Shown here: one piece after another, positions 24,362 to 39,069 of the stretch
Layout of the letters: each line of letters opens with the position of its first letter
Position numbering within the stretch: the stretch's first letter is position 1
Origin: an uncultured Clostridium sp.
GTDB taxonomy: Bacteria; Bacillota; Clostridia; TANB77; CAG-465
Length of the DNA stretch: 64,000 nt
Direction: 5' to 3'
NCBI GenBank assembly: GCA_948470565.1
Contig: CAOKPF010000003.1
Span: 21 to 64,020 of the forward strand
Position numbers and translations under genes: made by a program
The notes under the pieces: generated by a model
The model's database searches: none
What the model saw: only the letters and a program-made list of their open reading frames with translations
Told to the model about the DNA's origin: nothing

Positions 24362-26056
24362 CTACATTTCATAAATATAGTATTTTTCAAATCCTTCAAA
24401 CACTATTACAAATTTTTTTAAGTTTTGCCTTTTTTCAAGTCTTTTATCTTTTATATATCTATTCATCTGCTCTATTCCATTTTCCTTTAATTTTTCTATA
24501 TTTACTACTTTTGCTTTTTCTTTACTTAGATATTTTAGTTCTATTACAGCTTCATACTTTGCATTACTTGATGCAGACTTTTCAATAAATATATCAGCAA
24601 AGCCTTGAAGCGCTGGAAATTCTCCATATACATAATACTGACTACTTAAACTAAAGAAAAGTGAATACACATATTTTAATGTTTTTTCGCTAAAGTTTTC
24701 TTTATCTCTTATACTTTGATGAGATAGAAAACTACATATAACTTTAGTCATCTCTTCTATATTTCCATTATCGCCAAACTGTATTATTCCATTGTTGATA
24801 TCCCTTGTATCTATGTTGTATTCCTTACTTGTAGCTATCATTTTTTGAAAATAACTTGCATACAACGCTTCTGATACATAATTTGGAATACAAAATGTAA
24901 TAGTAATCCCTACATCTTTTATTGTTATATATCCTTGATAATATAACAATGAAAGAAAACTATCCTCATTAAATACATTATCATTTAATTCAAACTGCCT
25001 TACTATATTTCCCTTAACTTCTCCATTAGTTATTAGTTCTATTAGTTTTTCATAATTTTTCTTAGGATTAATCAAATTTACAAAGCTTTCTATTTTATTT
25101 CCTGATGTTGCCAAATTATTATCTACTATATCACGTGGTGCTTTTCCAGAATTTATATACTTTATAAGATAATACATTACTAGAGTTGTATTAAATATAT
25201 GTTCTTCATTATCCAAACTAAACCTATATCCATCATAATTTTTCTTTAACTCTTCATATACATTATTTTTTAAGCCAGACTTTTTAACCAAATTTCTTAC
25301 TTCATCTTCTGTAAAACCACACATTCCAACAAATTCAGCATCTGATGAAATGTTTGTAGCTATATTAAATCCTGATGTTAAACTATCTAACATTAGTGGT
25401 GCTATTCCTGTTGCAAAAAATCTGTCTACTACGCTATTAGTACCTTCTGTATATTCCTTTATTACCTCATAAAATGCTCTTACAAATCCTCCTTGCCCTA
25501 ATGATTTTACAAAACCTGATACATTTCCATCTAGCATTCCATTTGTAAAATGGTCATATTCATCTATTACTATATATATTTTATTATTCTTATTCAATCT
25601 TTCAAACTTTGATAGTAGTTCAAAAAGTATCATTGATGCTGGCTTATTCTCTCTCAACTTTATATTAAGTTTATACTTTTCTATAAACTTATTACAATAT
25701 CCTCTTACTTTATCATTGAAGTTTTCTTCAATTTCTCTTTCTGTCTTACTACTACTTACATTCATTCCTGAAAAATTGAATTTTAAAATGTAATAACTAT
25801 TCTTCTTTTCTGTAGGTTTATCGTATATGTATAATCCTTTAAATAGTTTTTCATAATTATCTTTTTCATATATATCGTAATAATATGAAATCATGCTTGT
25901 AAATAAACTTTTTCCAAATCTGCGAGGGCGAACATATATTGCATTAATATATTGTTCTAGTTTTTCTATATACATTGTTTTATCTACATATTCATATTTT
26001 TCTTCTCTAAGCACTGCAAAATCAGATTTTCCATAAGGTATTTTTATTTTATCCAC
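24362..26056 (-). CDS. AAA-ATPase-like + PDDEXK_9 nuclease-family protein
   Basis: 564 aa; IPYGKSDFAVLREEKYEYVDKT start, PRRFGKS P-loop, C-terminal D...IELK nuclease-like core. Confidence 0.8.
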   Translation of the reverse strand: MDKIKIPYGKSDFAVLREEKYEYVDKTMYIEKLEQYINAIYVRPRRFGKSLFTSMISYYYDIYEKDNYEKLFKGLYIYDKPTEKKNSYYILKFNFSGMNVSSSKTEREIEENFNDKVRGYCNKFIEKYKLNIKLRENKPASMILFELLSKFERLNKNNKIYIVIDEYDHFTNGMLDGNVSGFVKSLGQGGFVRAFYEVIKEYTEGTNSVVDRFFATGIAPLMLDSLTSGFNIATNISSDAEFVGMCGFTEDEVRNLVKKSGLKNNVYEELKKNYDGYRFSLDNEEHIFNTTLVMYYLIKYINSGKAPRDIVDNNLATSGNKIESFVNLINPKKNYEKLIELITNGEVKGNIVRQFELNDNVFNEDSFLSLLYYQGYITIKDVGITITFCIPNYVSEALYASYFQKMIATSKEYNIDTRDINNGIIQFGDNGNIEEMTKVICSFLSHQSIRDKENFSEKTLKYVYSLFFSLSSQYYVYGEFPALQGFADIFIEKSASSNAKYEAVIELKYLSKEKAKVVNIEKLKENGIEQMNRYIKDKRLEKRQNLKKFVIVFEGFEKYYIYEM

Positions 26057-27920: not shown

Positions 27921-27960
27921 AAAAAGCAGTATAACCAATTAAAATTATACTGCTTTTTTG
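27921..27960. terminator. bidirectional terminator after the kinase gene
   Basis: aagcagtata (27924-27933) pairs with tatactgctt (27946-27955); A-run before and T-run after. Confidence 0.6.
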
Positions 27961-27991: not shown

Positions 27992-29755
27992 TTAGCCAAA
28001 CCTATAAATTGCTTTATCTGTTAATATATCAAATCCACCATTTTCAAAATTTAGTGTAGCATCTTCATTGACAACATGACAATCAAAGTTTTTAACTCTA
28101 TTTTCCAAGTAGTTAATTCCAACAATCTTGCCATGTGAAGGTGAAAATATTGTATTATTTGCAAAGCAAATTGAATTAAGTGAAGTTGCACTATAACGAT
28201 AAACTTCTTTATCAAAAATAATTTCGCCCTTTAATGAAATTACTACTGTTCTATGAGTTCCTGTACTTGTTTCATATATAAACAACCAGTTTTTACTAAT
28301 TTTATCATATTTTATTGCATATTCTGTAATTTTATTTTTGTAATTTAAGAAAACACTAAATTTCTTAGACGTTATAAGCATTTTTTTATCATAAAGTAAA
28401 ATTGCTAAATAATCATCATTAGTAACCAAATATATCGTATTTACATATACAGAGGCTAATTCTTCAAAAAACAACATTCCATTTTTGATCTCATTTTTTG
28501 AAAGCCTAAATGAGTCATCAATATAGCAAATACATTTTCCACTAATACTTACCGCTGATTTATATGACTTTTGCATATGGCATACTCTATTATTTGTATC
28601 TGTATCATACACTACAATCTCATTATCATATATTTCAAATACATACTTTCCATCTTCTGAAAATTCTACTCTGTAATCATTAGAAGCACCCCATGTCTTA
28701 CCTGTTCTTACATGAACAAATTTTGAATCGTAATTTAAATACTTATCAAAATCAAAGAAATAATTTACCTCTTTTGATGCAAAAATAGTCTTAATGCTAA
28801 TGCCACTAGGAGTAACTGCTTTTGTCACACTTGGCATTACGCTTACATCAGCCTTTTCATTACATATTGGACATTCTGTATATTTTGAATAATAATAGAC
28901 TTTATGTTTATTACAATACTTTAAATTGTTGTATAAATCTCTAAGATCTTCTGTAATATATTTTCTTTCACCTTTTTCAAATATTGCAAGGAAACTGTCC
29001 AAAAGCCTAGGCGACATCCAATTCCATGAGTCAATCATTGGTGGAATACCTATATTATGATTACCAAGCACTGAAAGCTTTGCTTTTATTCTGTTTTCTG
29101 TACTCATATCAACATCTTTGTCGTATTTACCATTAAATGGATGCATACGTGTTAATATTTTAAAACAAAGAAGTGCAAAAGCATACATATCAGTCTTTAC
29201 ACTAAGTTCTACTTTTACCAAATTACCTTTATTGTATATATATGCTTCTGGATCGACGTAATTTTCCGTCCAAGCATCTGCAGGATGCGAGTCAATTCCG
29301 AAACTATCAGCATCAATAAAATATAAATCCTTACCTTTAACTAAAACATTTCTTTCATTTATATCACCAATATACTTTCCATCTTTATGAATCTGTTCTA
29401 ATTTGTCAGAATAGTCAATCATAATTTCAAGTATATCTTTGTTAGTAAAACCTGTAAGTTTTAAATGTTTCTTTTTAGCTAAAGCTCCAATTTGCTCAGA
29501 GTTCGTAACTTTTCTCATTATATAGCCCGCAAATCGATTAGCAATTATTACATTATTCAATGGAGCAATTACAAAAAATAATCTGTGAGGTTTAAGCCAA
29601 GCTAATACTTTTTTTTCCTTTAAATCAAATATTACATTTGTTTTAAATATTTTCATAACTTCATATTTAGTATATTCATAAATCTCTGCTTCACCACCAC
29701 TTGCCATTAAATTATATACTTTTCCAAGTTCATTTTGTTTAATATTAATAGCCAT
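27992..29755 (-). CDS. Ser/Thr protein kinase-like protein with zinc ribbon and beta-rich C-terminal domain
   Basis: GGEAEIY G-loop, VMKIF Lys, GDINERNVL catalytic loop, DADSFG, DPE; CNKH...CPIC ribbon. Start at ATG 29755 behind an AGGAGGG SD. Confidence 0.75.
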   Translation of the reverse strand: MAINIKQNELGKVYNLMASGGEAEIYEYTKYEVMKIFKTNVIFDLKEKKVLAWLKPHRLFFVIAPLNNVIIANRFAGYIMRKVTNSEQIGALAKKKHLKLTGFTNKDILEIMIDYSDKLEQIHKDGKYIGDINERNVLVKGKDLYFIDADSFGIDSHPADAWTENYVDPEAYIYNKGNLVKVELSVKTDMYAFALLCFKILTRMHPFNGKYDKDVDMSTENRIKAKLSVLGNHNIGIPPMIDSWNWMSPRLLDSFLAIFEKGERKYITEDLRDLYNNLKYCNKHKVYYYSKYTECPICNEKADVSVMPSVTKAVTPSGISIKTIFASKEVNYFFDFDKYLNYDSKFVHVRTGKTWGASNDYRVEFSEDGKYVFEIYDNEIVVYDTDTNNRVCHMQKSYKSAVSISGKCICYIDDSFRLSKNEIKNGMLFFEELASVYVNTIYLVTNDDYLAILLYDKKMLITSKKFSVFLNYKNKITEYAIKYDKISKNWLFIYETSTGTHRTVVISLKGEIIFDKEVYRYSATSLNSICFANNTIFSPSHGKIVGINYLENRVKNFDCHVVNEDATLNFENGGFDILTDKAIYRFG

Positions 29756-29775: not shown

Positions 29776-30477
29776 TTAATAACAAATTGTAATGTCATCT
29801 TTTATACTTTCACTATTTCTTGCAATTTGTAAACGAATTTTTCCTGCTTTATCAGCCTTAAGATTATCTTCAAATTTTCGTTTTACCTCAAAACCTAAAT
29901 TAAGAAGATACTTTAAACCATCTGTTGCAACTCCAACATTGGCAAATTCCTCTTTAGAAAATTCTCTTGTCTTAAAGGTAACACCATTTGAATATAACTC
30001 TGTTTGAATATAGTTGTATATATAGTACTTGGGACAACCATCATTACATTCTTCTTCAAGTGAAATGTACTCAAAATCATCTTCAGTAGCCAAGACTTCT
30101 TTCTTCCTTGTAATTATATATCCATCTCCGCAATACTTTACTACAAATTTATCCTCTAACTCATATACTACAAGAATTGTAAAACAAAAATTTTGTGTTA
30201 TAAAACGTGTATCTACTGCAAGAGATAATAATTTATCAAATACTGTTTTAGTACAATCTTCTATTCTTTCAGGAGCACACCTCATATCCTGTGGCAATCT
30301 TTCAAATAATTGTGCAAAAAGGCTTACACCAATCTCAGAGGTTAACCAATTCCCATTTATGTCGCTAGAACATCCATCAAGTGCCATCTTTATATTATCA
30401 ATTGCAAGCAAATTATCTTGTTTAGCTATTCCTTCAAATTCATGTAATGAACCAATTTTACTAACTAATATTGACAT
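29776..30477 (-). CDS. PP2C-like protein phosphatase
   Basis: 233 aa; LDGCSS, CGDGYII and VATDGL resemble the PP2C DGxGG / GDS / SDG motifs; lies between the vWA and kinase genes. Confidence 0.6.
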   Translation of the reverse strand: MSILVSKIGSLHEFEGIAKQDNLLAIDNIKMALDGCSSDINGNWLTSEIGVSLFAQLFERLPQDMRCAPERIEDCTKTVFDKLLSLAVDTRFITQNFCFTILVVYELEDKFVVKYCGDGYIITRKKEVLATEDDFEYISLEEECNDGCPKYYIYNYIQTELYSNGVTFKTREFSKEEFANVGVATDGLKYLLNLGFEVKRKFEDNLKADKAGKIRLQIARNSESIKDDITICY

Positions 30478-30499
30478 ATTAATTCCTCCTTAAAAACAA

Positions 30500-30519
30500 G
30501 GGAGGGTATACACCCTCCC
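30500..30519 (-). terminator. GC-rich hairpin between vWA and PP2C genes (terminator/attenuator)
   Basis: gggagggt-atac-accctccc, followed on the minus strand by cttgttttt and then the PP2C SD. Confidence 0.5.
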
Positions 30520-30558
30520 ATGCTAATATTAAAAAATTACAACTACAAAGTTACAAAA

Positions 30559-31251
30559 TTACACCTGAAAGAATGTACCAGCAGTCGGATTAACAGCACT
30601 CTTGCTTGCAGAATTTATAGACTTTGAAAGAATGTCAAATATTACTCTAAGCTTCTTTGCATTTGCCTCCTTTTCATTTAAGCAATTTGCAAACCCGAGC
30701 TGTTCTCCTATACCACAAGCCTCTTTGCCAAAGCCGATGTATACAGTAATAACTTCCTTCTTGTTAAGAAACTCCACTGCCTTCCTGGCATCACTTGCAC
30801 TAAACGTTGAACTTGTATCCTCACCATCACTAAGAATAACAAATATGCCTCTGGCTTTAACTTTGCCTTTCCTTAACATATCAATGTATCCTTTTTTGTC
30901 ATCTGTCATAAGAGATAACTGAGCTCCTACAATAGCATCATACAGTGATGTAAGTCCTCCCGCTTTGTAACTGTTATCAATATCAGCCACATTTTTGTAG
31001 CCAGAGCGTTTAACATTCTCATTAAAATGTGTAACACTGATAAGAAATTCATCTTCGCTTTTACTCTGCTTGATTGAATCTGTTATAATGTCAATGCAAC
31101 CTGGCACTACAGTCTCATGAGATTTCATAGAACCTGAGCTATCAATATACAAGGCTACTACTGTTTGCCGCTCACTCTCAAGCTCATCGATTTCCACATT
31201 ATTGCCTAAATCATAATCGTCTCCACCAAAAATTTCTGTAACATCACTCAT
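30559..31251 (-). CDS. vWA domain protein (TerY-like)
   Basis: 230 aa; MIDAS DSSGSM, later LSDGEDT; size and context match TerY. Confidence 0.8.
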   Translation of the reverse strand: MSDVTEIFGGDDYDLGNNVEIDELESERQTVVALYIDSSGSMKSHETVVPGCIDIITDSIKQSKSEDEFLISVTHFNENVKRSGYKNVADIDNSYKAGGLTSLYDAIVGAQLSLMTDDKKGYIDMLRKGKVKARGIFVILSDGEDTSSTFSASDARKAVEFLNKKEVITVYIGFGKEACGIGEQLGFANCLNEKEANAKKLRVIFDILSKSINSASKSAVNPTAGTFFQV

Positions 31252-31288
31252 AGTAATTCTCCTTTCATATTTAACTGTTTTAATTTAA

Positions 31289-32302
31289 TTAAAGTTGCAA
31301 ATCTGTTGAATTAACCAGATTAATGTTATATTGTTTCTTCAAAGCTTCAAGCTCAGCCATTGTTTCAGCCTCTGTTCCAGGAATACAAGAGCAGCAATCC
31401 ATAAGGAAATATACCTTGCTTGTAATCTCTGGACGGTCAGAATAAACAGCCAAAAATTGTTTTAAGGACTCAAGTACACAGTGAGATTTTGCCTCTCCTG
31501 CAATGATTATCATATCATATCCTGCAACAGCGTCAGTAAGTTTTGTGTTTACCTTATAAACACCATCTTTTGGATATTCCTCTGCAAAGATACCATACAT
31601 TTCAGAAAATGGGCTTTTGCCTTTTTCAACCCAAAGCGGACGTATCTTTCTTGCAGCCTCATGAAAATAAATAAGCTTTACAAGTTCCTGCTCTGGAAGC
31701 CACCCCTTAGTACTTTCCAAGCAATGCTGTGTCCAAATCATAAGTTTTTTCTTACTTTGCTTATCAAGACCAGTTAAATAATCCCGATAAATCTTCGGAT
31801 ACATTACAGGGGTATATTTTCCATCATCGCAATCTTCTTTAAGAATTTGTGTATATGGTTTTACATAATTGCCGTCTTCATCAATCCAGCAGCATTCAGA
31901 GAACACATGAAAGAACATATGGGTGTCTAAAGAACACATAACCCTTGTAATCTTATCCAAGTTCTTATACAAGAATCTCGTAAGTCTTTTGCAATCCTCA
32001 ATTGCTCCTGGTACTGCCAAAGTACCATTATCTTCAAAATCGAACTGCTGATCAATGACCATCAGTAATGTTTTCTTGATGTCCCTTTCGGCAGGCTCTA
32101 CATCTTCCTGAAGCCCCATATGCAAAATATCAGTAAAGTTAACTTCTTTTTCTTTGTCAACCATATCCAATATTTCCATAATGTCTTTATCCGGATTTTT
32201 TGCAGCCAGCTCCTTTATTCTCCGCATATACCATTCTTTGTCGGAAAGCCCGATCCTTTCTTCGCATACAATAGTTTCATAAGCTGTTTTTAAATTTGCC
32301 AT
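31289..32302 (-). CDS. nicotinamidase/isochorismatase-family hydrolase with ~75-aa N-terminal extension
   Basis: VIDQQFDF, SLDTHMFFH, WTQHC, EKGKSPFSEMYGIF and AGEAKSHCV parallel PncA motifs (DxQxDF, DWHxxxH, KG..DSYSAF, ATDYCV). Confidence 0.7.
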   Translation of the reverse strand: MANLKTAYETIVCEERIGLSDKEWYMRRIKELAAKNPDKDIMEILDMVDKEKEVNFTDILHMGLQEDVEPAERDIKKTLLMVIDQQFDFEDNGTLAVPGAIEDCKRLTRFLYKNLDKITRVMCSLDTHMFFHVFSECCWIDEDGNYVKPYTQILKEDCDDGKYTPVMYPKIYRDYLTGLDKQSKKKLMIWTQHCLESTKGWLPEQELVKLIYFHEAARKIRPLWVEKGKSPFSEMYGIFAEEYPKDGVYKVNTKLTDAVAGYDMIIIAGEAKSHCVLESLKQFLAVYSDRPEITSKVYFLMDCCSCIPGTEAETMAELEALKKQYNINLVNSTDLQL

Positions 32303-32423
32303 AATTTTTTCCTCTCTTTCCTTTTAATGCAAAACTTACCATTTATATGTTATGTAAAATTTGTCAAAAGAAACTTTACTAGCCACCATATTCAGGTAAG
32401 CCTTATTGATTGATTACGCCGTT

Positions 32424-32452
32424 ATTATATCATACCGTTTTTATTATGTCAA
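32424..32452 (-). promoter_or_regulatory. strong promoter of the nicotinamidase-like/vWA unit
   Basis: Minus strand TTGACA, 17 nt, TGaTATAAT (extended -10); about 115-nt leader. Confidence 0.6.
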
Positions 32453-32554
32453 TACTTTTTTAAAAAATGTTATTATTTTTTTGTTAAAAACATAAATATA
32501 ATATTAGGAAACAACTAAAATCCATACTAAATATGTAATTTAAAATAGCTACAT

Positions 32555-33628
32555 TTATTGAAATTTAGTAACATCACTAATTTTTCCCGCAAAATATGGT
32601 TTGGATTTTCCCTTTTCCACTAAAAATATTGCAAACGTATCATCTACAAAAAATCTCCTAGGTTTCTCTGGCTCTAAGATAGCAGTTGCTTTATTCATAA
32701 TTCCTGCCTCACTTTTAATTTTTCCACCTTCTTTATCTAACTCAAACTTAATTGTCTGAACTGCTTTATCTATTGTATAAATATCGCCATTTGAAAATTC
32801 ATATGGAATACCTTGTATCTGTGTAAACTCATTTTTTTCATTAATTTTTATATTAGGTACTTTAAAAAACTCACTATCTTTTAAATATTTATTACCATCA
32901 TATTTACTTTCCTGTTTCATTATACTATCATAGATTTCATTGAAAGTATTTCCCCTAGGACTTTTACAAAAAATTACCTCATCATCTCCCTTGGTATCAA
33001 GTTTTATAGCAAAACTATCTTCAGAGTTATAATACAATACGTTCACTTGTTGTCTTAACTCATCTTTATCTTCTGATTTTATTCCAAAATATTCTACATT
33101 ATTGTAATTACCAAATTTTGATTTTTCTAATTCTTCAAATGCCTTTTCAAATTTAAATTCTTTCTTTAACATTACGTATAAAAAGTAATCTTTTGGATTT
33201 CCACTATTAAAATCAAAATCATCTAATATATCACTAGTTTCATTAAATTTATCTTTTATTCCCTTTTCTATTTCTTTTTTTAATGCAATAGATGGTGTAC
33301 CTATCTTTTTGTAATAATAACTATCTGATATATCATTAGTATTAAATGTTTCTTTATTTAAGTTTTCAACTACCTCTAATTGAGGATTAAATATTATATC
33401 TTGTTTTGCAAGATCATTTTTCAAATCATTCCATATAAGTTGAAATGTACCACACCAAATTGTATCAGTTTGTATTTTATCCTCTAAAGTTAATACTGTT
33501 GTTATTCCATCTGTACTTGAAGGTCTAAGTGAAGTTACACCATTACCATCAAGTATTTTTTTACCAAATATACATACTATAACTAGTATAATTATTATAC
33601 CAATGATTATTATTATTTTTTTATTCAT
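32555..33628 (-). CDS. membrane-anchored serpin-like protein
   Basis: N-terminal TM. The C-terminal half follows the serpin pattern: KAVQTIKFELDKEGGKIKSEAG...RRFFVDDTFAIFLVE...PYFAGKISD. ATG 33628 behind a GGAG SD. Confidence 0.5.
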   Translation of the reverse strand: MNKKIIIIIGIIIILVIVCIFGKKILDGNGVTSLRPSSTDGITTVLTLEDKIQTDTIWCGTFQLIWNDLKNDLAKQDIIFNPQLEVVENLNKETFNTNDISDSYYYKKIGTPSIALKKEIEKGIKDKFNETSDILDDFDFNSGNPKDYFLYVMLKKEFKFEKAFEELEKSKFGNYNNVEYFGIKSEDKDELRQQVNVLYYNSEDSFAIKLDTKGDDEVIFCKSPRGNTFNEIYDSIMKQESKYDGNKYLKDSEFFKVPNIKINEKNEFTQIQGIPYEFSNGDIYTIDKAVQTIKFELDKEGGKIKSEAGIMNKATAILEPEKPRRFFVDDTFAIFLVEKGKSKPYFAGKISDVTKFQ

Positions 33629-33643
33629 CAAACTATCTCCAAA

Positions 33644-34621
33644 TTAATTTTTACTATAACTTAATACCAAAATTTCATTCAAATCTCCCTCTAATGCATT
33701 CTTTAAGTAAATTTCTTTTCTACTATCAGTATCCTCAATATCTATTTTTGAAAATCTAAAATATCTGTATATTCTATCCTCACTACTTGAAAATTTATCC
33801 CTAGTACTATCAAGACATACTCTAAAACTATTATTTCCTTCAAAAGTTACATCAGTAATTATCATATCTCCCTCGATTGTAAAACTAATACATCTAATAA
33901 AGTCAGGTTGATTACTATTTACATTATCTAAAAATCTATTTAACTCATCAATATTTTTTATTTCTCCACCTGTTTTGGTTACTACACAATTATCTGATAT
34001 TGCTTGTTCTACTGTATAATTACTTGGCAATTTTTCTATTTTAGTTTTATAATCAGTTTCAGTTTGAATTTTTATAACATCTATTTGTACAGGATATGTT
34101 TCCATTACATAACCTGTATATGTAATTAATAACTCTTGTCCAATACTATACAAAATATCATTATTATCACCTAAATTTATTACTATTTTATCTGATAATA
34201 ATTTTAGATCATTTTCTTCAATAGGTTTTACTTCTATTTTATTAATATCAGAGTAAGTAACAATTGCTCTAAACTTAGCATCATTATCACTCTCATTTGT
34301 TTGAGTATTATTATCATTTGTAACAACTTCATTGGTATAGAATTTTTCAGAATCTGTAATACTTCTTGCTATACAAGTATTGCCCACAAACATTTCAACT
34401 TTTTCAAAATCATCTAAACACTTAGTATTCATATCAAAAACTGCTTCAACCCTATATCCAACACATAAATATTTTATTAATCCTTCATCATTAGATACAT
34501 GTACTGCAAATATTGGTCTTTTTAAATTCAAACATCTATTATAGTCTGTCAAAAACACTATCCCCCATAAAACTATAATAATTCCTACAATAATTAATAT
34601 TATTTTTAATTTTTTATTCAT
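33644..34621 (-). CDS. membrane-anchored DUF4362-like protein
   Basis: C-terminal NCVVTKTGGEIKNIDELNRFLDNV...FTIEGDMIITDVTFEGN...DSTRDKF matches DUF4362. Confidence 0.55.
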   Translation of the reverse strand: MNKKLKIILIIVGIIIVLWGIVFLTDYNRCLNLKRPIFAVHVSNDEGLIKYLCVGYRVEAVFDMNTKCLDDFEKVEMFVGNTCIARSITDSEKFYTNEVVTNDNNTQTNESDNDAKFRAIVTYSDINKIEVKPIEENDLKLLSDKIVINLGDNNDILYSIGQELLITYTGYVMETYPVQIDVIKIQTETDYKTKIEKLPSNYTVEQAISDNCVVTKTGGEIKNIDELNRFLDNVNSNQPDFIRCISFTIEGDMIITDVTFEGNNSFRVCLDSTRDKFSSSEDRIYRYFRFSKIDIEDTDSRKEIYLKNALEGDLNEILVLSYSKN

Positions 34622-34639
34622 ATCTACCATTCCTTTCTA

Positions 34640-35524
34640 TTATTTAGACGTTTTTTTTATAGACTTTAGTTGGTATTTTATGAAAAAAATTATAAAAATA
34701 ATAAAAAAAGATAAAAATATTGCTGATATCGTAAGAAATCCTACTCCATAATAATTTATATCAAAATCACTACTTTCAACTAATATTTCTTGATTTTCTT
34801 TATCAGTAAGTTCTTTATCCGTACTAGTGATCTCACTAGTAATATCCTCAGTTTTTGCCTCTTCTTTTGAGGTATTTCCTGTGTTTTGCTCTTTATTTTC
34901 ATCTTCTTTTACTATTTCTTGTTCTTCAAAATTGAGATTTTTTTTCTTAAATAAGCTTTTTAGTCCAATAACAAACGTTATAACAAACATACCTAAATTT
35001 CCAAGTAATATTTTTAATGTATGTAAGGACTTGTAATATCTCCACTTTATAGTACTTGTAGGCTCGTTTAATAACTTGGCTATTTCATCGAATGATAAAT
35101 CTGCAAGTAGTTTTAGTGAAACAATCTCTTTTTCCTTATCGCTTAATTTTGCTATTAATGTATAATAACTATATTTATCAATTACATTAATAAGTTGACT
35201 ATCCTCTGCTTTTATATCATATATATTGTCTAAACTAATTGTACTATCTTTTTTCCTTAACAAAGATATCGCCTCATTTTTTGTTATACTATAAACCCAA
35301 CTTACTTGATTTTTTGTTGGTAATTTTTCTTTACTAAGATTATATATTTTTATAAAAACTATCTGCATTACATCTTCTGAATCTTCTTTGTTCTTTAATA
35401 TGCTAAATGCAATTAAATATACTAATTGATTGTATTTTTCATATAATTTTTGAAAATCTGATATATTACCAGATTTAAAACTTTCAAATAGCTCTTTTAT
35501 TTCTTCTTTGTTTATCCTATTCAT
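34640..35524 (-). CDS. sigma-70/ECF-type sigma factor fused to two TM segments
   Basis: Region 2 (DSEDVMQIVFIKIY) and region 4 (LSFDEIAKLLNEPTSTIKWRYYKSL), followed by a TM, an acidic linker and a second TM. Confidence 0.75.
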   Translation of the reverse strand: MNRINKEEIKELFESFKSGNISDFQKLYEKYNQLVYLIAFSILKNKEDSEDVMQIVFIKIYNLSKEKLPTKNQVSWVYSITKNEAISLLRKKDSTISLDNIYDIKAEDSQLINVIDKYSYYTLIAKLSDKEKEIVSLKLLADLSFDEIAKLLNEPTSTIKWRYYKSLHTLKILLGNLGMFVITFVIGLKSLFKKKNLNFEEQEIVKEDENKEQNTGNTSKEEAKTEDITSEITSTDKELTDKENQEILVESSDFDINYYGVGFLTISAIFLSFFIIFIIFFIKYQLKSIKKTSK

Positions 35525-37337: not shown

Positions 37338-37900
37338 AAACTACCCCGCCGCAAGCAACGGGGTATTCGCCTGTATGTCCTACTCAAATAATGTAATCTG
37401 TCCATTATACATCTTATTATAACACTTTCCCTGATTCTTTACGTAGTTTTCTACTTGTTTCTCACTACCATTTTTTCCGACTGTTCCAACGAAATAACCG
37501 TCCACTCCTAAAATTTCCTCCCCAAAGTTTCGTCTTTACTTCAGGGCATCTTTTAAATATCTCTCTTGCTGTTACACCTTTTACTATATTGGCTATTTGG
37601 GAAGACGAAATTTTTGGTACTGATTGTATCAAAAAATGTACATGGTCTCTATCTTCTCCTATCTCTATAAAATTTATTTCATACTGGACGCTTATTTCTT
37701 TACATGCTCCTATCAATGCATCTTTTACATTTTCTGAATCGAAAACTACTCTTCTATACTTTGTAGGACATACATAGTGGTATAATAATACTGATACATT
37801 ATTCGATTTATGTATATATTCACTCATTTTATCATTCCACACCTTTCATCAGTATTATTATACCACTTAGCTTGTTACGACGCAAGCGTCGGGGAATTAA
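37338..37900 (-). mobile_element. IS200/IS605-family insertion sequence (tnpA only)
   Basis: Y1 transposase ORF flanked by related subterminal hairpins: taccccgccgcaagcaacggggta at 37342-37365 and cgacgcaagcgtcg at 37877-37890. Confidence 0.7.
37380..37842 (-). pseudogene. tnpA: IS200-type Y1 transposase TnpA with 1-nt frameshift before the catalytic Tyr
   Basis: LLYHYVCPTKYRR and HVHFLIQ (HUH) are intact. After LWGGNF the frame slips. The next frame reads DGYFVGTVGKNGSEKQVENYVKNQGK... to a TAG at 37380. Confidence 0.75.
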
Positions 37901-39069
37901 ACTCGAAGAGATTAAAGTATATTACAAAACTAGAAAATAAAAATATAAATTCTGTTTCTCTAGATGACATTACTGAAAGAATTATAGCACAATCAGATCC
38001 AGAATTATTTATCCGAACTCACCCTACACCACTTATTATTGATGAATTTCAATATGCTCCAAACTTATTGTCATATATAAAAATAAAAATAGATGAAGCA
38101 AGAGAAAATGAATTATTTGGTAATGGGAAAAAAGTAGGTACATTATATTATCTTACTGGTTCACAGGTTTTTGAAACTATGGAAAATGTTTCTGAATCTT
38201 TGGCAGGAAGGGTGGGTATAATTCATTTGCACCCTCTATCTACTAGAGAAATTAATAAATGTAATGAAGAAATATTTATTCCAGATATTAATATTTTAAG
38301 AAATAAGCAGACTGTTAAAAAGGAATATATTCCTGATTTATTTGAAAGGATATTTCGTGGAAGCTATCCTGAAATTTATAAAAATACAGATATAGACCTG
38401 GAAGCATACTTTTCGTCCTATATAAGAACCTATATAGAAAGAGATGTAAGAAAAATTATAAATATTCAAAATGAAACAAAATTTATGAAATTTATTTCTT
38501 CAATGGCTGCAAGAACAGGGCAAGAATATAATGCTTCAGATATAGCAAAAGACGTAGAAGTAGACGAAGAAACAATTAAAAAATGGACATCTTTATTAAC
38601 TAATACATATATTATATTTTTGTTACAACCCCATATGAATAATAATGTGGGAAGAATTATTAAAAGACCTAAAATATATTTTATGGATACTGGACTTGCT
38701 TGTTATTTAGCTGGATATGTAAGTAGTAAAACTTTAGAAAAAAGTGCTTACAGTAGACAAATTTTTGAAACTTATGTAATATCTGAAATAGTAAAAAGTT
38801 ATACAAATAATCAAAAAGATCCTCGTAAACATCTATATTATTATAGAGATAATAATAAAAGAGAAATAGACTTACTAATTATTAATGAAAACTCTATCTA
38901 CCCCGTTGAAATAAAAAAGAGTGCTAATCCTAGTAATGAGGCAATAAAGAATTTTGAAATAGTAGATAAATTTGAAATGAACTCTCCAAATGGAATTGTA
39001 ATATGTTTAACTGAAAATATTCATCCAATAAATGAAAAAAATTATTTAATACCGATTGAATATATATAA
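37894..39069 (+). pseudogene. 5'-truncated AAA_14 + DUF4143 ATPase (P-loop lost at the IS200 junction)
   Basis: Homology starts at ...VSLDDITERIIAQSDPELF...LIIDEFQYAP (Walker B); no Walker A; the first ~28 codons of the tracked ORF read through the IS end. Confidence 0.7.

Follow-up and report, generated by a model that had tools for sequence, protein, structure and literature searches.

Nicotinamidases are separated from other isochorismatase-like hydrolases by an Asp-His-His metal site, which binds the pyridine nitrogen in the known enzymes, as seen in PncA structures. Partner proteins with a vWA domain and a metal ion-dependent adhesion site (MIDAS) are known for several metalloenzymes, examples being the CobT/ChlD chelatase subunits, NorD, and CbbO, with MoxR ATPases. 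In the TerY-P triad, as summarised in PMC11090510, a TerY-like vWA protein is combined with a PP2C phosphatase and a Ser/Thr kinase carrying a zinc ribbon (Anantharaman et al., 2012), and the same source describes the kinase of the tested TerY-P anti-phage system (Gao et al., 2020) as fused to an OB fold. As for viruses, the only NAD-synthesis enzymes of phages listed in a 2022 survey of viral NAD systems are NadV, NadM, and NadR (PMC9503650). Here, these systems are compared with a locus found in a 64,000-nt stretch of DNA (hereafter the window) from an uncultured Clostridium sp. (GenBank assembly GCA_948470565.1, contig CAOKPF010000003.1, positions 21 to 64,020), in which genes for a 337-aa nicotinamidase-like protein, a vWA protein, a PP2C-type phosphatase, and a Ser/Thr kinase follow one another, in that order, on the minus strand. 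The four genes form a cassette that is apparently a widespread and unreported TerY-P-like switch with a nicotinamidase-vWA core, and we propose, with moderate confidence, that in this module the nicotinamidase-vWA pair is gated by the PP2C/kinase switch, which would control nicotinamide salvage. Literature searches returned no paper linking a nicotinamidase to a vWA/PP2C/kinase triad or to phage conflict.

A predicted nicotinamidase and its TerY-P-like partners

A preliminary description of this DNA had placed the 337-aa gene directly upstream of the vWA gene and in the same direction, behind a very strong promoter. Both points agree with the coordinates: the two genes are separated by 37 nt (81 nt between the vWA and PP2C genes), and the promoter is present at 32452-32424 on the minus strand. 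The features of the locus are the following:

32424..32452, minus strand: consensus sigma-70 promoter (TTGACA, 17 nt, TGaTATAAT) with an extended -10 TG, the sole 12/12 match in 27.4-32.7 kb
32303..32423, minus strand: 5' leader of about 120 nt with a purine-rich ribosome-binding site, AAAGGAAAGAGAGG, ahead of the ATG (sequence reading)
31289..32302, minus strand: predicted 337-aa PncA-type nicotinamidase of a long divergent subfamily (profile, AF2/Foldseek, catalytic and metal residues, family neighbours)
30559..31251, minus strand: 230-aa vWA-domain protein with a complete MIDAS (ortholog alignment; weak database matches)
30490..30519, minus strand: GC-rich hairpin, GGGAGGGTGTATACCCTCCC, followed by a T-run in the vWA-PP2C spacer, probably an internal attenuator or terminator (terminator scan)
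29776..30477, minus strand: 233-aa PP2C-type phosphatase (Pfam PP2C_2; Asp motifs)
27992..29755, minus strand: 587-aa Ser/Thr kinase with kinase domain, zinc ribbon, and C-terminal beta-propeller (profile, AF2/Foldseek)
27921..27958, minus strand: terminator-like hairpin with a 16-pair stem and a T-rich tail, 34 nt past the kinase stop, likely the operon end (terminator scan)

Because direct family searches and single-sequence searches with the 337-aa protein gave nothing usable (in the PDB, only Pyrococcus PncA at E=1.2), a profile and a structure model were needed. A search of 5.8 billion proteins yielded 65 relatives, 42 of which entered the profile; some relatives (40-49% identity) bear precomputed PF00857 matches, and some are named "nicotinamidase-related amidase" at source. 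When the 42-relative profile was compared with the PDB, nicotinamidases ranked first, including those of yeast (Pnc1, 2h0r, 3e-16), P. horikoshii (PncA, 1ilw, 1e-10), and M. tuberculosis (PncA, 3pl1, 4e-9). Likewise, with an AF2 model built on the alignment of the relatives (pLDDT 95.5), the top 14 PDB matches in Foldseek were all nicotinamidases (E down to 2.7e-12, target TM 0.74-0.82). In the profile alignment, D84, K227, and C275 fall on the residues that act in catalysis in yeast Pnc1, and the putative metal ligands D126, H128, and H193 on the DxH and W-P-x-H-C motifs of P. horikoshii PncA and yeast Pnc1. Indeed, all six residues are invariant in 94 members of the family (31 cassette-linked and 63 solitary). 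The signature motifs quoted in the preliminary description (VIDQQFDF, SLDTHMFFH, WTQHC, EKGKSPFSEMYG, and AGEAKSHCV) were all found in the translation, and its suggestion of a PncA-type, nicotinamidase-like identity is borne out by both rankings and by the invariant Asp-Lys-Cys and Asp-His-His sets. From its sequence and modelled structure, the 337-aa protein is predicted to be a metal-dependent nicotinamidase of a long, divergent PncA subfamily, with a predicted activity converting nicotinamide to nicotinate and ammonia.

Members of this family are 300-337 residues long, versus 180-235 for PncA/Pnc1, and the family departs from a textbook PncA in an N-terminal helical extension, which packs onto the core in the AF2 model, an insert of ~45 residues between the metal ligands, a C-terminal extension, and a Ser-His-Cys motif. 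An N-terminal extension of ~75 aa with no obvious family had been reported earlier; it is present, but only part of it is peculiar to this protein, as the first ~20 residues and residues ~50-75 are common to the whole family and only a two-helix insert of ~30-45 residues is special to the clade of the window.

Catalytic or MIDAS residues are kept in all four cassette proteins. In the vWA protein, the MIDAS (D37-x-S-x-S41, T101, and D142) is invariant in 22 orthologs, and so are S209, S211, and S216 of a Ser-rich C-terminal tail. Its database matches are weak (the CobT_C VWA as sole Pfam match; the vWA of ITIH4 in the PDB, at 0.003); among PHROG families it matches phrog_7371 at 2e-11, and the PHROG families matched by the vWA protein and by the kinase are of unknown function. 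The PP2C protein of the window matches Pfam PP2C_2 at 1e-3, under the Pfam cut-off, with orthologs at 1.6e-12 to 4e-10, and its metal-binding Asp motifs (D21, D34-G35, G117-D118-G119, D186, and D227-D228) are invariant. The kinase has a weak Pfam Pkinase match, and its profile matches Ser/Thr kinases in the PDB; the catalytic Lys, Asp, Asn, and DxD are invariant, as is C291...C305-P-x-C308 of the zinc ribbon (C-x-x-H...C-P-x-C) that follows directly after the kinase domain. In its AF2 model (pLDDT 86), the N-terminal half resembles IRAK4-type kinases and the C-terminal half is an all-beta propeller with BamB/WD40 matches (Foldseek). The frame of this gene is open from a TTG at 29785 (597 aa), and an identical database protein (P0070) starts at the ATG at 29755 (587 aa, MAINIK...), so that the kinase gene is set 20 nt apart from the PP2C stop and does not overlap it. 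None of the PADLOC TerY models matched the three partner proteins of the window or 27 proteins from 9 diverse cassettes, and the only PADLOC kinase models matched were PD-T4-6, MAD6, MkoA, Stk2, and PglW. Since no PADLOC TerY model matches, the triad is called TerY-P-like here, and not a member of the tested defence system.

Distribution and genomic context of the cassette

Co-occurrence of homologs of the 337-aa protein with vWA, PP2C, and kinase genes was found in genomes, metagenomes, and viral contigs. In a genome scan (one genome per species; at least 597 nicotinamidase-family loci, of which the best 80 were kept), searches with the four window proteins or their profiles found the full four-gene cassette in 20 out of 84 non-redundant loci; at one further locus (L038), nicotinamidase, vWA, and kinase genes were found and PP2C was not detected. 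The hosts include Clostridia, Lachnospiraceae, a metagenome-assembled genome (MAG) labelled Prevotella, Chloroflexota, Polyangiaceae, MAGs labelled Pseudomonadales, and a Collierbacteria genome. A reverse scan of metagenome and viral contigs was seeded with a 12-sequence kinase alignment. Out of 80 metagenome loci, 57 held all four genes, 20 were cut by the contig end, and 3 had other DNA upstream, which gives 57 full cassettes among the 60 loci that could be evaluated; on viral contigs, all four genes were found in 66 of 69 cases. About 90 distinct cassettes were left after removing near-identical copies, and approximately one quarter of the sampled family members are tied to vWA/PP2C/kinase genes.

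Three gene orders were found (nicotinamidase-vWA-PP2C-kinase, PP2C-kinase-nicotinamidase-vWA, and vWA-PP2C-kinase-nicotinamidase), which are circular permutations of one cycle. The third is known from a single viral contig (L171, GC 0.51), where the kinase gene precedes that of the nicotinamidase; in every other case the nicotinamidase and vWA genes are adjacent. The pair is also present without kinase or PP2C at a Chloroflexota locus (L069) and on Variovorax megaplasmids. The adjacency seen in the other two orders and the existence of kinase-free pairs make nicotinamidase and vWA look like the core of the cassette, with PP2C and kinase as a frequent add-on. The preliminary description had regarded the nicotinamidase as a fourth component joined to a triad: it is a true conserved member, but the reverse view fits better, in which PP2C and kinase were added to an enzyme-vWA pair rather than an enzyme to a triad. 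A rough neighbour-joining tree shows the cassette-linked enzymes mixed in with those of salvage operons, and no residue distinguished 31 cassette-linked from 63 solitary enzymes (criterion, 80% vs. 30%); for these two reasons, the cassette appears to use an ordinary member of the nicotinamidase family.

Some cassettes on metagenome contigs that are probably of phage origin have extra genes inside them (L095, L099, L125, and L130, in the nicotinamidase-vWA gap; L152; L113; L100-L105). Named by sequence reading, with no family search, these include an HNH/AP2-like homing endonuclease gene, a ThyX-like gene with an AbrB-like one, a radical-SAM gene, and a gene for a 321-aa coiled-coil protein in the PP2C-kinase gap.

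The neighbouring open reading frames (ORFs) of the genome loci were clustered and the clusters then annotated. Among Bacilli, 7 loci have the nicotinamidase gene followed by a nicotinate phosphoribosyltransferase gene (pncB), several of them also with the NAD synthase gene nadE, the solitary members forming (NrtR)-nicotinamidase-pncB-nadE operons; NrtR is a Nudix-type regulator of NAD genes. In 11 Chloroflexota loci, the nicotinamidase gene lies near that of an archaeal-type nicotinate phosphoribosyltransferase (PDB 2i14, 4e-10; 1ytd), NrtR being noted there as well, and the nicotinamidase gene adjoins that of NrtR in 11 loci. Because these neighbours form a classical nicotinamide-nicotinate-NAD salvage arrangement, the normal job of the family is very probably that of PncA.

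Full cassettes are also found among NAD genes. NrtR is encoded directly upstream of PP2C-kinase-nicotinamidase-vWA at three loci (L036, L082, and L087), the first of which also holds a Nudix gene and nadE. At L240, a divergent nadE gene is followed by a phosphoribosyl pyrophosphate (PRPP)-synthetase-like prs gene, nadV (NAMPT), a small ORF, and nicotinamidase-vWA-PP2C-kinase; in its sister genome (L243), the flanks are shared but the NAD genes are missing. On the Variovorax megaplasmids, an NrtR gene is divergent from the nicotinamidase-vWA pair, with two Nudix genes, a macro-domain gene, and a NAD kinase gene around. The NAD/ADP-ribose neighbourhood of the pair is dense on the megaplasmid of Variovorax sp. 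WDL1 (L247, NZ_LR594690.1 651567-666313), where NrtR, a second Nudix protein, a macro-domain protein, a nucleoside 2-deoxyribosyltransferase, and NAD kinase are encoded, with AlkB, RNase HII, and RecX beside them. On a Vibrio vulnificus megaplasmid (L246, NZ_CP015514.1), a distant solitary homolog adjoins an RNA ligase family gene, and an 850-aa TerD family protein is encoded ~4 kb away.

The viral contigs with the cassette are 40-165 kb long, fall into at least 8 compositionally distinct groups (locus GC 0.24-0.51), and have almost all genes in the same direction. Flanks of 8 representative contigs encode terminase, SPP1-type portal, NAD-dependent DNA ligase, RNA ligase, and RtcB, and gave further matches to Ro60-like DUF2828/vWA proteins, SSB, helicase/primase, endonuclease VII, and many HNH endonucleases. 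At L170, a T7 gp5.9-like RecBCD inhibitor domain is encoded directly upstream of the cassette. These contigs are real phages, whose cassettes occupy regions of the kind that usually encode early, host-takeover, and repair functions. Copies are almost absent from phage genomes in GenBank (one 6.5-kb fragment and weak matches in three huge phages), so that the phage evidence rests on uncultured viral contigs. No pncB or nadE gene was found within 10 kb of the cassette at any viral locus. In three phage groups (L184, L173, and L223), a gene for a ~500-aa DUF2828 + DUF7788 protein, Ro60-like and with a match to the PHROG annotation "RNA-binding protein", lies 0.05-2.3 kb upstream of the cassette, and the L184 copy also scores VWA_2; given this neighbour, these phages carry two unrelated vWA proteins side by side.

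Base composition, expression signals, and flanks

The preliminary description had noted that the block from about 30.5 to 32.35 kb is GC-richer than its surroundings. Its hand counts of G+C in single 60-nt lines (25/60, 19/60, and 13/60) were exact, and both a sliding-window computation and the G+C content at third codon positions (GC3) show a step. GC is 0.361 for 30500-32452 versus 0.259 for the whole window, and the richest 1953-nt stretch in the 64 kb lies at 30.3-32.3 kb (0.363; mean 0.259, sd 0.027). The step is located at synonymous sites: GC3 reaches 0.335 in the nicotinamidase gene and 0.309 in the vWA gene (z = 4.2 and 3.6, respectively, relative to a mean of 0.155 and sd of 0.043 over the 51 long ORFs of the window), and PP2C and kinase, with 0.167 and 0.179, look native. 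The edges of the step coincide with the promoter and with the vWA-PP2C hairpin (30519-30500, minus strand).

From this block it had been concluded that the nicotinamidase and vWA genes look recently acquired or swapped in, a conclusion that did not stand. In 87 out of 90 distinct cassettes, GC3 is higher in nicotinamidase and vWA than in PP2C and kinase (mean difference, +0.052; window, +0.15), and this asymmetry holds whichever of the three orders is present and in hosts whose GC runs from 24 to 73%, relatedness among cassettes inflating any p-value attached to it. High-GC hosts with an asymmetry of the opposite sign were not found. In the closest full relative (L001), GC3 is 0.45/0.33 for nicotinamidase/vWA versus 0.17/0.17 for PP2C/kinase, and amino-acid identity to the window is uniform across nicotinamidase, vWA, PP2C, and kinase (72/69/70/66%). 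Because L001 shares the asymmetry and is equally diverged in all four genes, the GC3 state predates the split between the two loci and has been maintained since. Likewise, because the asymmetry spans such broad hosts, the GC excess of nicotinamidase and vWA is best described as a maintained gene-specific bias and not as the trace of a recent transfer. C-ending and G-ending codons are both raised, G-ending purine codons as much as C-ending pyrimidine codons, and pure translational selection was rejected as sole cause, since the two rises are equal; selection linked to higher expression is a plausible origin of the excess. The presence of a hairpin does not explain the size of the asymmetry.

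Expression signals recur in other cassettes. In 30 of 79 distinct cassettes, a consensus or near-consensus promoter, always with a perfect TTGACA, precedes the nicotinamidase gene by at most 300 nt; such promoters were found in 2.8% of random windows from the same loci. When 32440-32480 (minus strand) of the window was compared with the region ~200 nt upstream of the nicotinamidase gene at L004, an A/T-rich stretch and the -35 region, TTTTTTAAAAAAGTATTGACAtAATAAA, were found to be nearly identical; the proteins of both loci are only 48% identical, and this likeness hints at a conserved UP-element and promoter. The vWA-PP2C spacer of the window folds at -26 kcal/mol, and stable hairpins (folding free energy, dG, <= -13; range, -13 to -27 kcal/mol), each different in sequence, occur in this spacer in ~31 of 84 distinct cassettes, compared with only 3 cassettes having a hairpin in the nicotinamidase-vWA spacer; these calls were made by folding energy, a crude U-tail count for terminators being unreliable. 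One possibility is that the vWA-PP2C hairpin acts as an internal attenuator and thereby fixes how much enzyme and vWA is made relative to kinase and PP2C. Rfam searches gave no family for the leader, even at E<=1, nor for the spacers, and an L20-leader match over the vWA-PP2C hairpin (E=0.5, 23 bits vs. a threshold of 58.7) was taken as chance.

In the window, the flanking genes encode an MFS transporter, an AAA-ATPase/PD-(D/E)XK protein, a serpin-like protein, a DUF4362 protein, a sigma factor, PepC, UDG, and an oxidoreductase. These are ordinary chromosomal genes, forming neither a prophage nor an evident defence island. The AAA-ATPase/PD-(D/E)XK protein (24362-26056, minus strand; 564 aa; predicted AAA-ATPase and nuclease domains, PF09820 + PF08011) is encoded two genes downstream of the kinase and is not conserved beside other cassettes. 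Upstream of the cassette (32555-35524, minus strand), a secreted serpin-like protein (weak Serpin match), the DUF4362 protein, and a sigma-70-family protein, which has a long C-terminal extension with a hydrophobic segment at its end, could together make up an extracytoplasmic-function unit with no relation to the cassette. An IS200-type Y1 transposase ORF (37465-37842, minus strand), located about 5 kb away from the cassette, overlaps the start of an AAA_14/DUF4143 ATPase gene (37810-39069, plus strand), which may be a mobile-element scar.

Possible role of the module and comparison with known systems

In the mechanism that we propose, the nicotinamidase and the vWA protein would be the working core, overproduced from the consensus promoter, and the internal hairpin would pass less transcript on to PP2C and kinase; promoters and hairpins suggest that enzyme and vWA are in excess over kinase and PP2C. 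The vWA protein would bind or mature the metal-dependent enzyme through its MIDAS. The propeller and zinc ribbon of the kinase would sense a protein or nucleic-acid cue, and kinase and PP2C would set the phosphorylation of the vWA protein or the enzyme, the invariant Ser-rich vWA tail being a candidate target. The phosphorylation state would turn the flux from nicotinamide to nicotinate on or off, a flux that would control the re-entry of nicotinamide into NAD synthesis by the PncB/NadD/NadE (Preiss-Handler) route and would also clear nicotinamide, an inhibitor of NAD-consuming enzymes. In bacteria, the module would be an accessory control unit of NAD salvage; in phages, it could act from early regions, plausibly rebuilding NAD cleaved by host NADases. 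More tentatively, the unit could be a so far unrecognised NAD-conflict module used on both sides of the arms race between phages and bacteria, in which a phosphorylation-gated nicotinamidase, with the vWA protein as obligate MIDAS-type partner, would let phages return NADase-released nicotinamide to NAD via the Preiss-Handler enzymes of the host, and would let bacteria control the nicotinamide pool or deny it to phage pathways. In that case, phages would use it early in infection and gain a third strategy of NAD reconstitution, and the enzyme would be the first nicotinamidase known under Ser/Thr kinase and PP2C regulation.

Several observations weigh against control of nicotinamide salvage as the role of this module. 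The 337-aa protein matched no family in Pfam (including PF00857, Isochorismatase) or NCBIfam even at E<=10, and no PADLOC model at E<=0.01. The putative action of kinase and PP2C on the enzyme or the vWA protein is read from gene linkage only, and the GC3 excess is not a simple tRNA adaptation, because G-ending and C-ending codons are both raised. In the window itself, the cassette is flanked by MFS transporter, serpin-like, sigma factor, and housekeeping genes with no NAD gene, and no pncB, nadE, NrtR, or NAPRTase homologs were found anywhere in the 64 kb. Moreover, triads of the related TerY-P type, also made of vWA, PP2C, and kinase, are reported to work against phages as systems of their own (PMC11090510). 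Finally, because of the ~45-residue insert near the active site and of Ser-His-Cys in place of the usual x-Tyr-Cys, the substrate could be other than nicotinamide.

This last point leads to a reading that we consider quite unlikely, in which a nicotinamidase fold acts on another amide substrate (nicotinamide mononucleotide, nicotinamide riboside, NAD, or a protein side chain) and the output of the module is not nicotinate. It would fit the failure of family sequence models on the 337-aa protein, the large insert between metal ligands (residues 129-192), the N-terminal helical extension packed on the core, and the invariant Ser-His ahead of the catalytic Cys, where canonical enzymes have x-Tyr; however, the metal site, whose role in binding the pyridine nitrogen is established for PncA, is intact, genes of the family directly precede that of nicotinate phosphoribosyltransferase, an enzyme dependent on free nicotinate, and some members in phage cassettes have reverted to the canonical Asp-Tyr-Cys. 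Even less probable, and largely refuted, is the view of the two GC-rich genes as a recently acquired or swapped-in foreign block. A GC3 of 3.6-4.2 sd above the window genes next to native-looking PP2C and kinase genes, the joint rise of C- and G-ending codons, as in a compositional rather than tRNA-driven shift, and the promoter and terminator-like hairpin that bound the block would all suit it, but the difference has the same direction in 87 of 90 cassettes whatever the host GC or gene order, is even larger in L001 with all four proteins equally diverged, and lacks the opposite sign expected in high-GC hosts from exchange with donors of mixed GC.

The two other alternatives concern the beneficiary of the cassette. 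Somewhat doubtful is the idea of a phage-derived counter-defence module stranded in the chromosome, which would restore NAD once NADase defences of the host have set nicotinamide free, by providing nicotinate to host PncB/NadD/NadE, with the kinase switch timing the enzyme to infection and the window copy having been transferred or domesticated. The full cassette on at least 66 viral contigs of at least 8 compositionally distinct groups, the viral flanks described above (terminase, portal, NAD-dependent DNA ligase, RNA ligase, RtcB, Ro60-like DUF2828/vWA, and gp5.9-like RecBCD inhibitor), the homing-endonuclease-like and ThyX-like genes (by sequence reading) within the metagenome cassettes L095, L099, and L152, the PHROG matches of vWA and kinase, and consensus host-type promoters that suit early phage expression are in line with it, and such a route would be new, as the survey names only NadV, NadM, and NadR in phages (PMC9503650). 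Nevertheless, the window is not a prophage, cassettes also occur in stable chromosomal NAD operons of Chloroflexota, Myxococcota, and candidate-phyla bacteria, any benefit for phages without pncB/nadE within 10 kb would depend on host enzymes, and the biochemistry is shared with the salvage-control model, only the beneficiary differing. We regard as unlikely an anti-phage defence in which the TerY-P-like sensor triggers or licenses the nicotinamidase, so that nicotinamide is destroyed and NAD reconstitution by the phage, for which nicotinamide is required, fails, or a NAD-derived signal is processed. Such a role would agree with the reports of TerY-P-like triads as stand-alone systems and as add-ons of restriction systems (PMC11090510), with the autonomy of the cassette in unrelated flanks and its carriage by phages, which are known carriers of defence systems, with the weak matches of the kinase domain to defence kinase models (PD-T4-6, MAD6, MkoA, and Stk2), and with a solitary homolog in B. 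cereus whose neighbours are genes for an OLD/TOPRIM ATPase and a UvrD-helicase (Gabija-like by sequence reading) and an integrase gene. Yet the 27 vWA/PP2C/kinase proteins from 9 diverse cassettes matched generic kinase models and no TerY model, the kinase ends in a beta-propeller and not in the OB fold of the tested system, several bacterial cassettes are inside NAD biosynthesis/salvage clusters (NrtR, nadV, prs, and nadE), phage copies adjoin genes of counter-defence type (gp5.9-like RecBCD inhibitor, RtcB, and RNA ligase), the window flanks are not a defence island, and deamidation of nicotinamide is not toxic in itself and normally feeds NAD synthesis.

Depletion and rebuilding of NAD are central to the conflict between phages and bacteria, in which the known phage routes use NadV-, NadM/NadR-, or NARP1-type enzymes. 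The module described here, with ~90 distinct cassettes across Firmicutes, Chloroflexota, Myxococcota, candidate-phyla bacteria, and at least 8 groups of large phages, joins the enzyme predicted to open the other branch of salvage, from nicotinamide to nicotinate, with a vWA partner and a kinase/phosphatase switch of eukaryote-like type. If the salvage-control model is true, this would be the first post-translational, signal-gated control of bacterial nicotinamide salvage, and it would provide a concrete enzymatic output for a TerY-P-type triad and a candidate phage counter-defence or host defence. In addition, the long PncA subfamily is missed by standard family models, which matters for the reconstruction of NAD metabolism in gut Clostridia and Chloroflexota.

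With PncA/Pnc1 (PF00857), the 337-aa protein shares the alpha/beta fold, the Asp-Lys-Cys triad, and the Asp-His-His metal site, and its family shares the partnership with nicotinate phosphoribosyltransferase, NAD synthase, and NrtR; it differs in being longer, in the N-terminal helical extension, the ~45-residue insert, and Ser-His-Cys, and in having no Pfam or NCBIfam match. Like NARP1, NARP2, and NadV/NadM/NadR of phages, the cassette is phage-borne, lies in early or auxiliary regions of large phages, takes nicotinamide as predicted input, and would bear on NAD supply during infection. In contrast, its chemistry would be deamidation to nicotinate and not phosphoribosyl or ADP-ribosyl transfer, it would need host PncB, NadD, and NadE, it brings a kinase/phosphatase switch, and nicotinamidase is not among the phage NAD enzymes of the 2022 survey (PMC9503650). 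The likeness to the TerY-P triad comprises the three protein types, the zinc ribbon right after the kinase domain, the compact co-directional unit, and the habit of attaching to different partner systems, whereas here the partner is a predicted nicotinamidase, a beta-propeller follows the ribbon, where the kinases of known triads stop at the ribbon or continue into an OB fold, and enzyme and vWA protein are found as a pair also in the absence of a kinase gene. Finally, as in CobT/ChlD, NorD, and CbbO, a small vWA protein with an intact MIDAS is encoded beside a putatively metal-dependent enzyme, and CobT vWA is the only Pfam match of the vWA protein of the window; the cassette differs from these systems in lacking an AAA+ ATPase partner, in whose place it has a kinase and a phosphatase.

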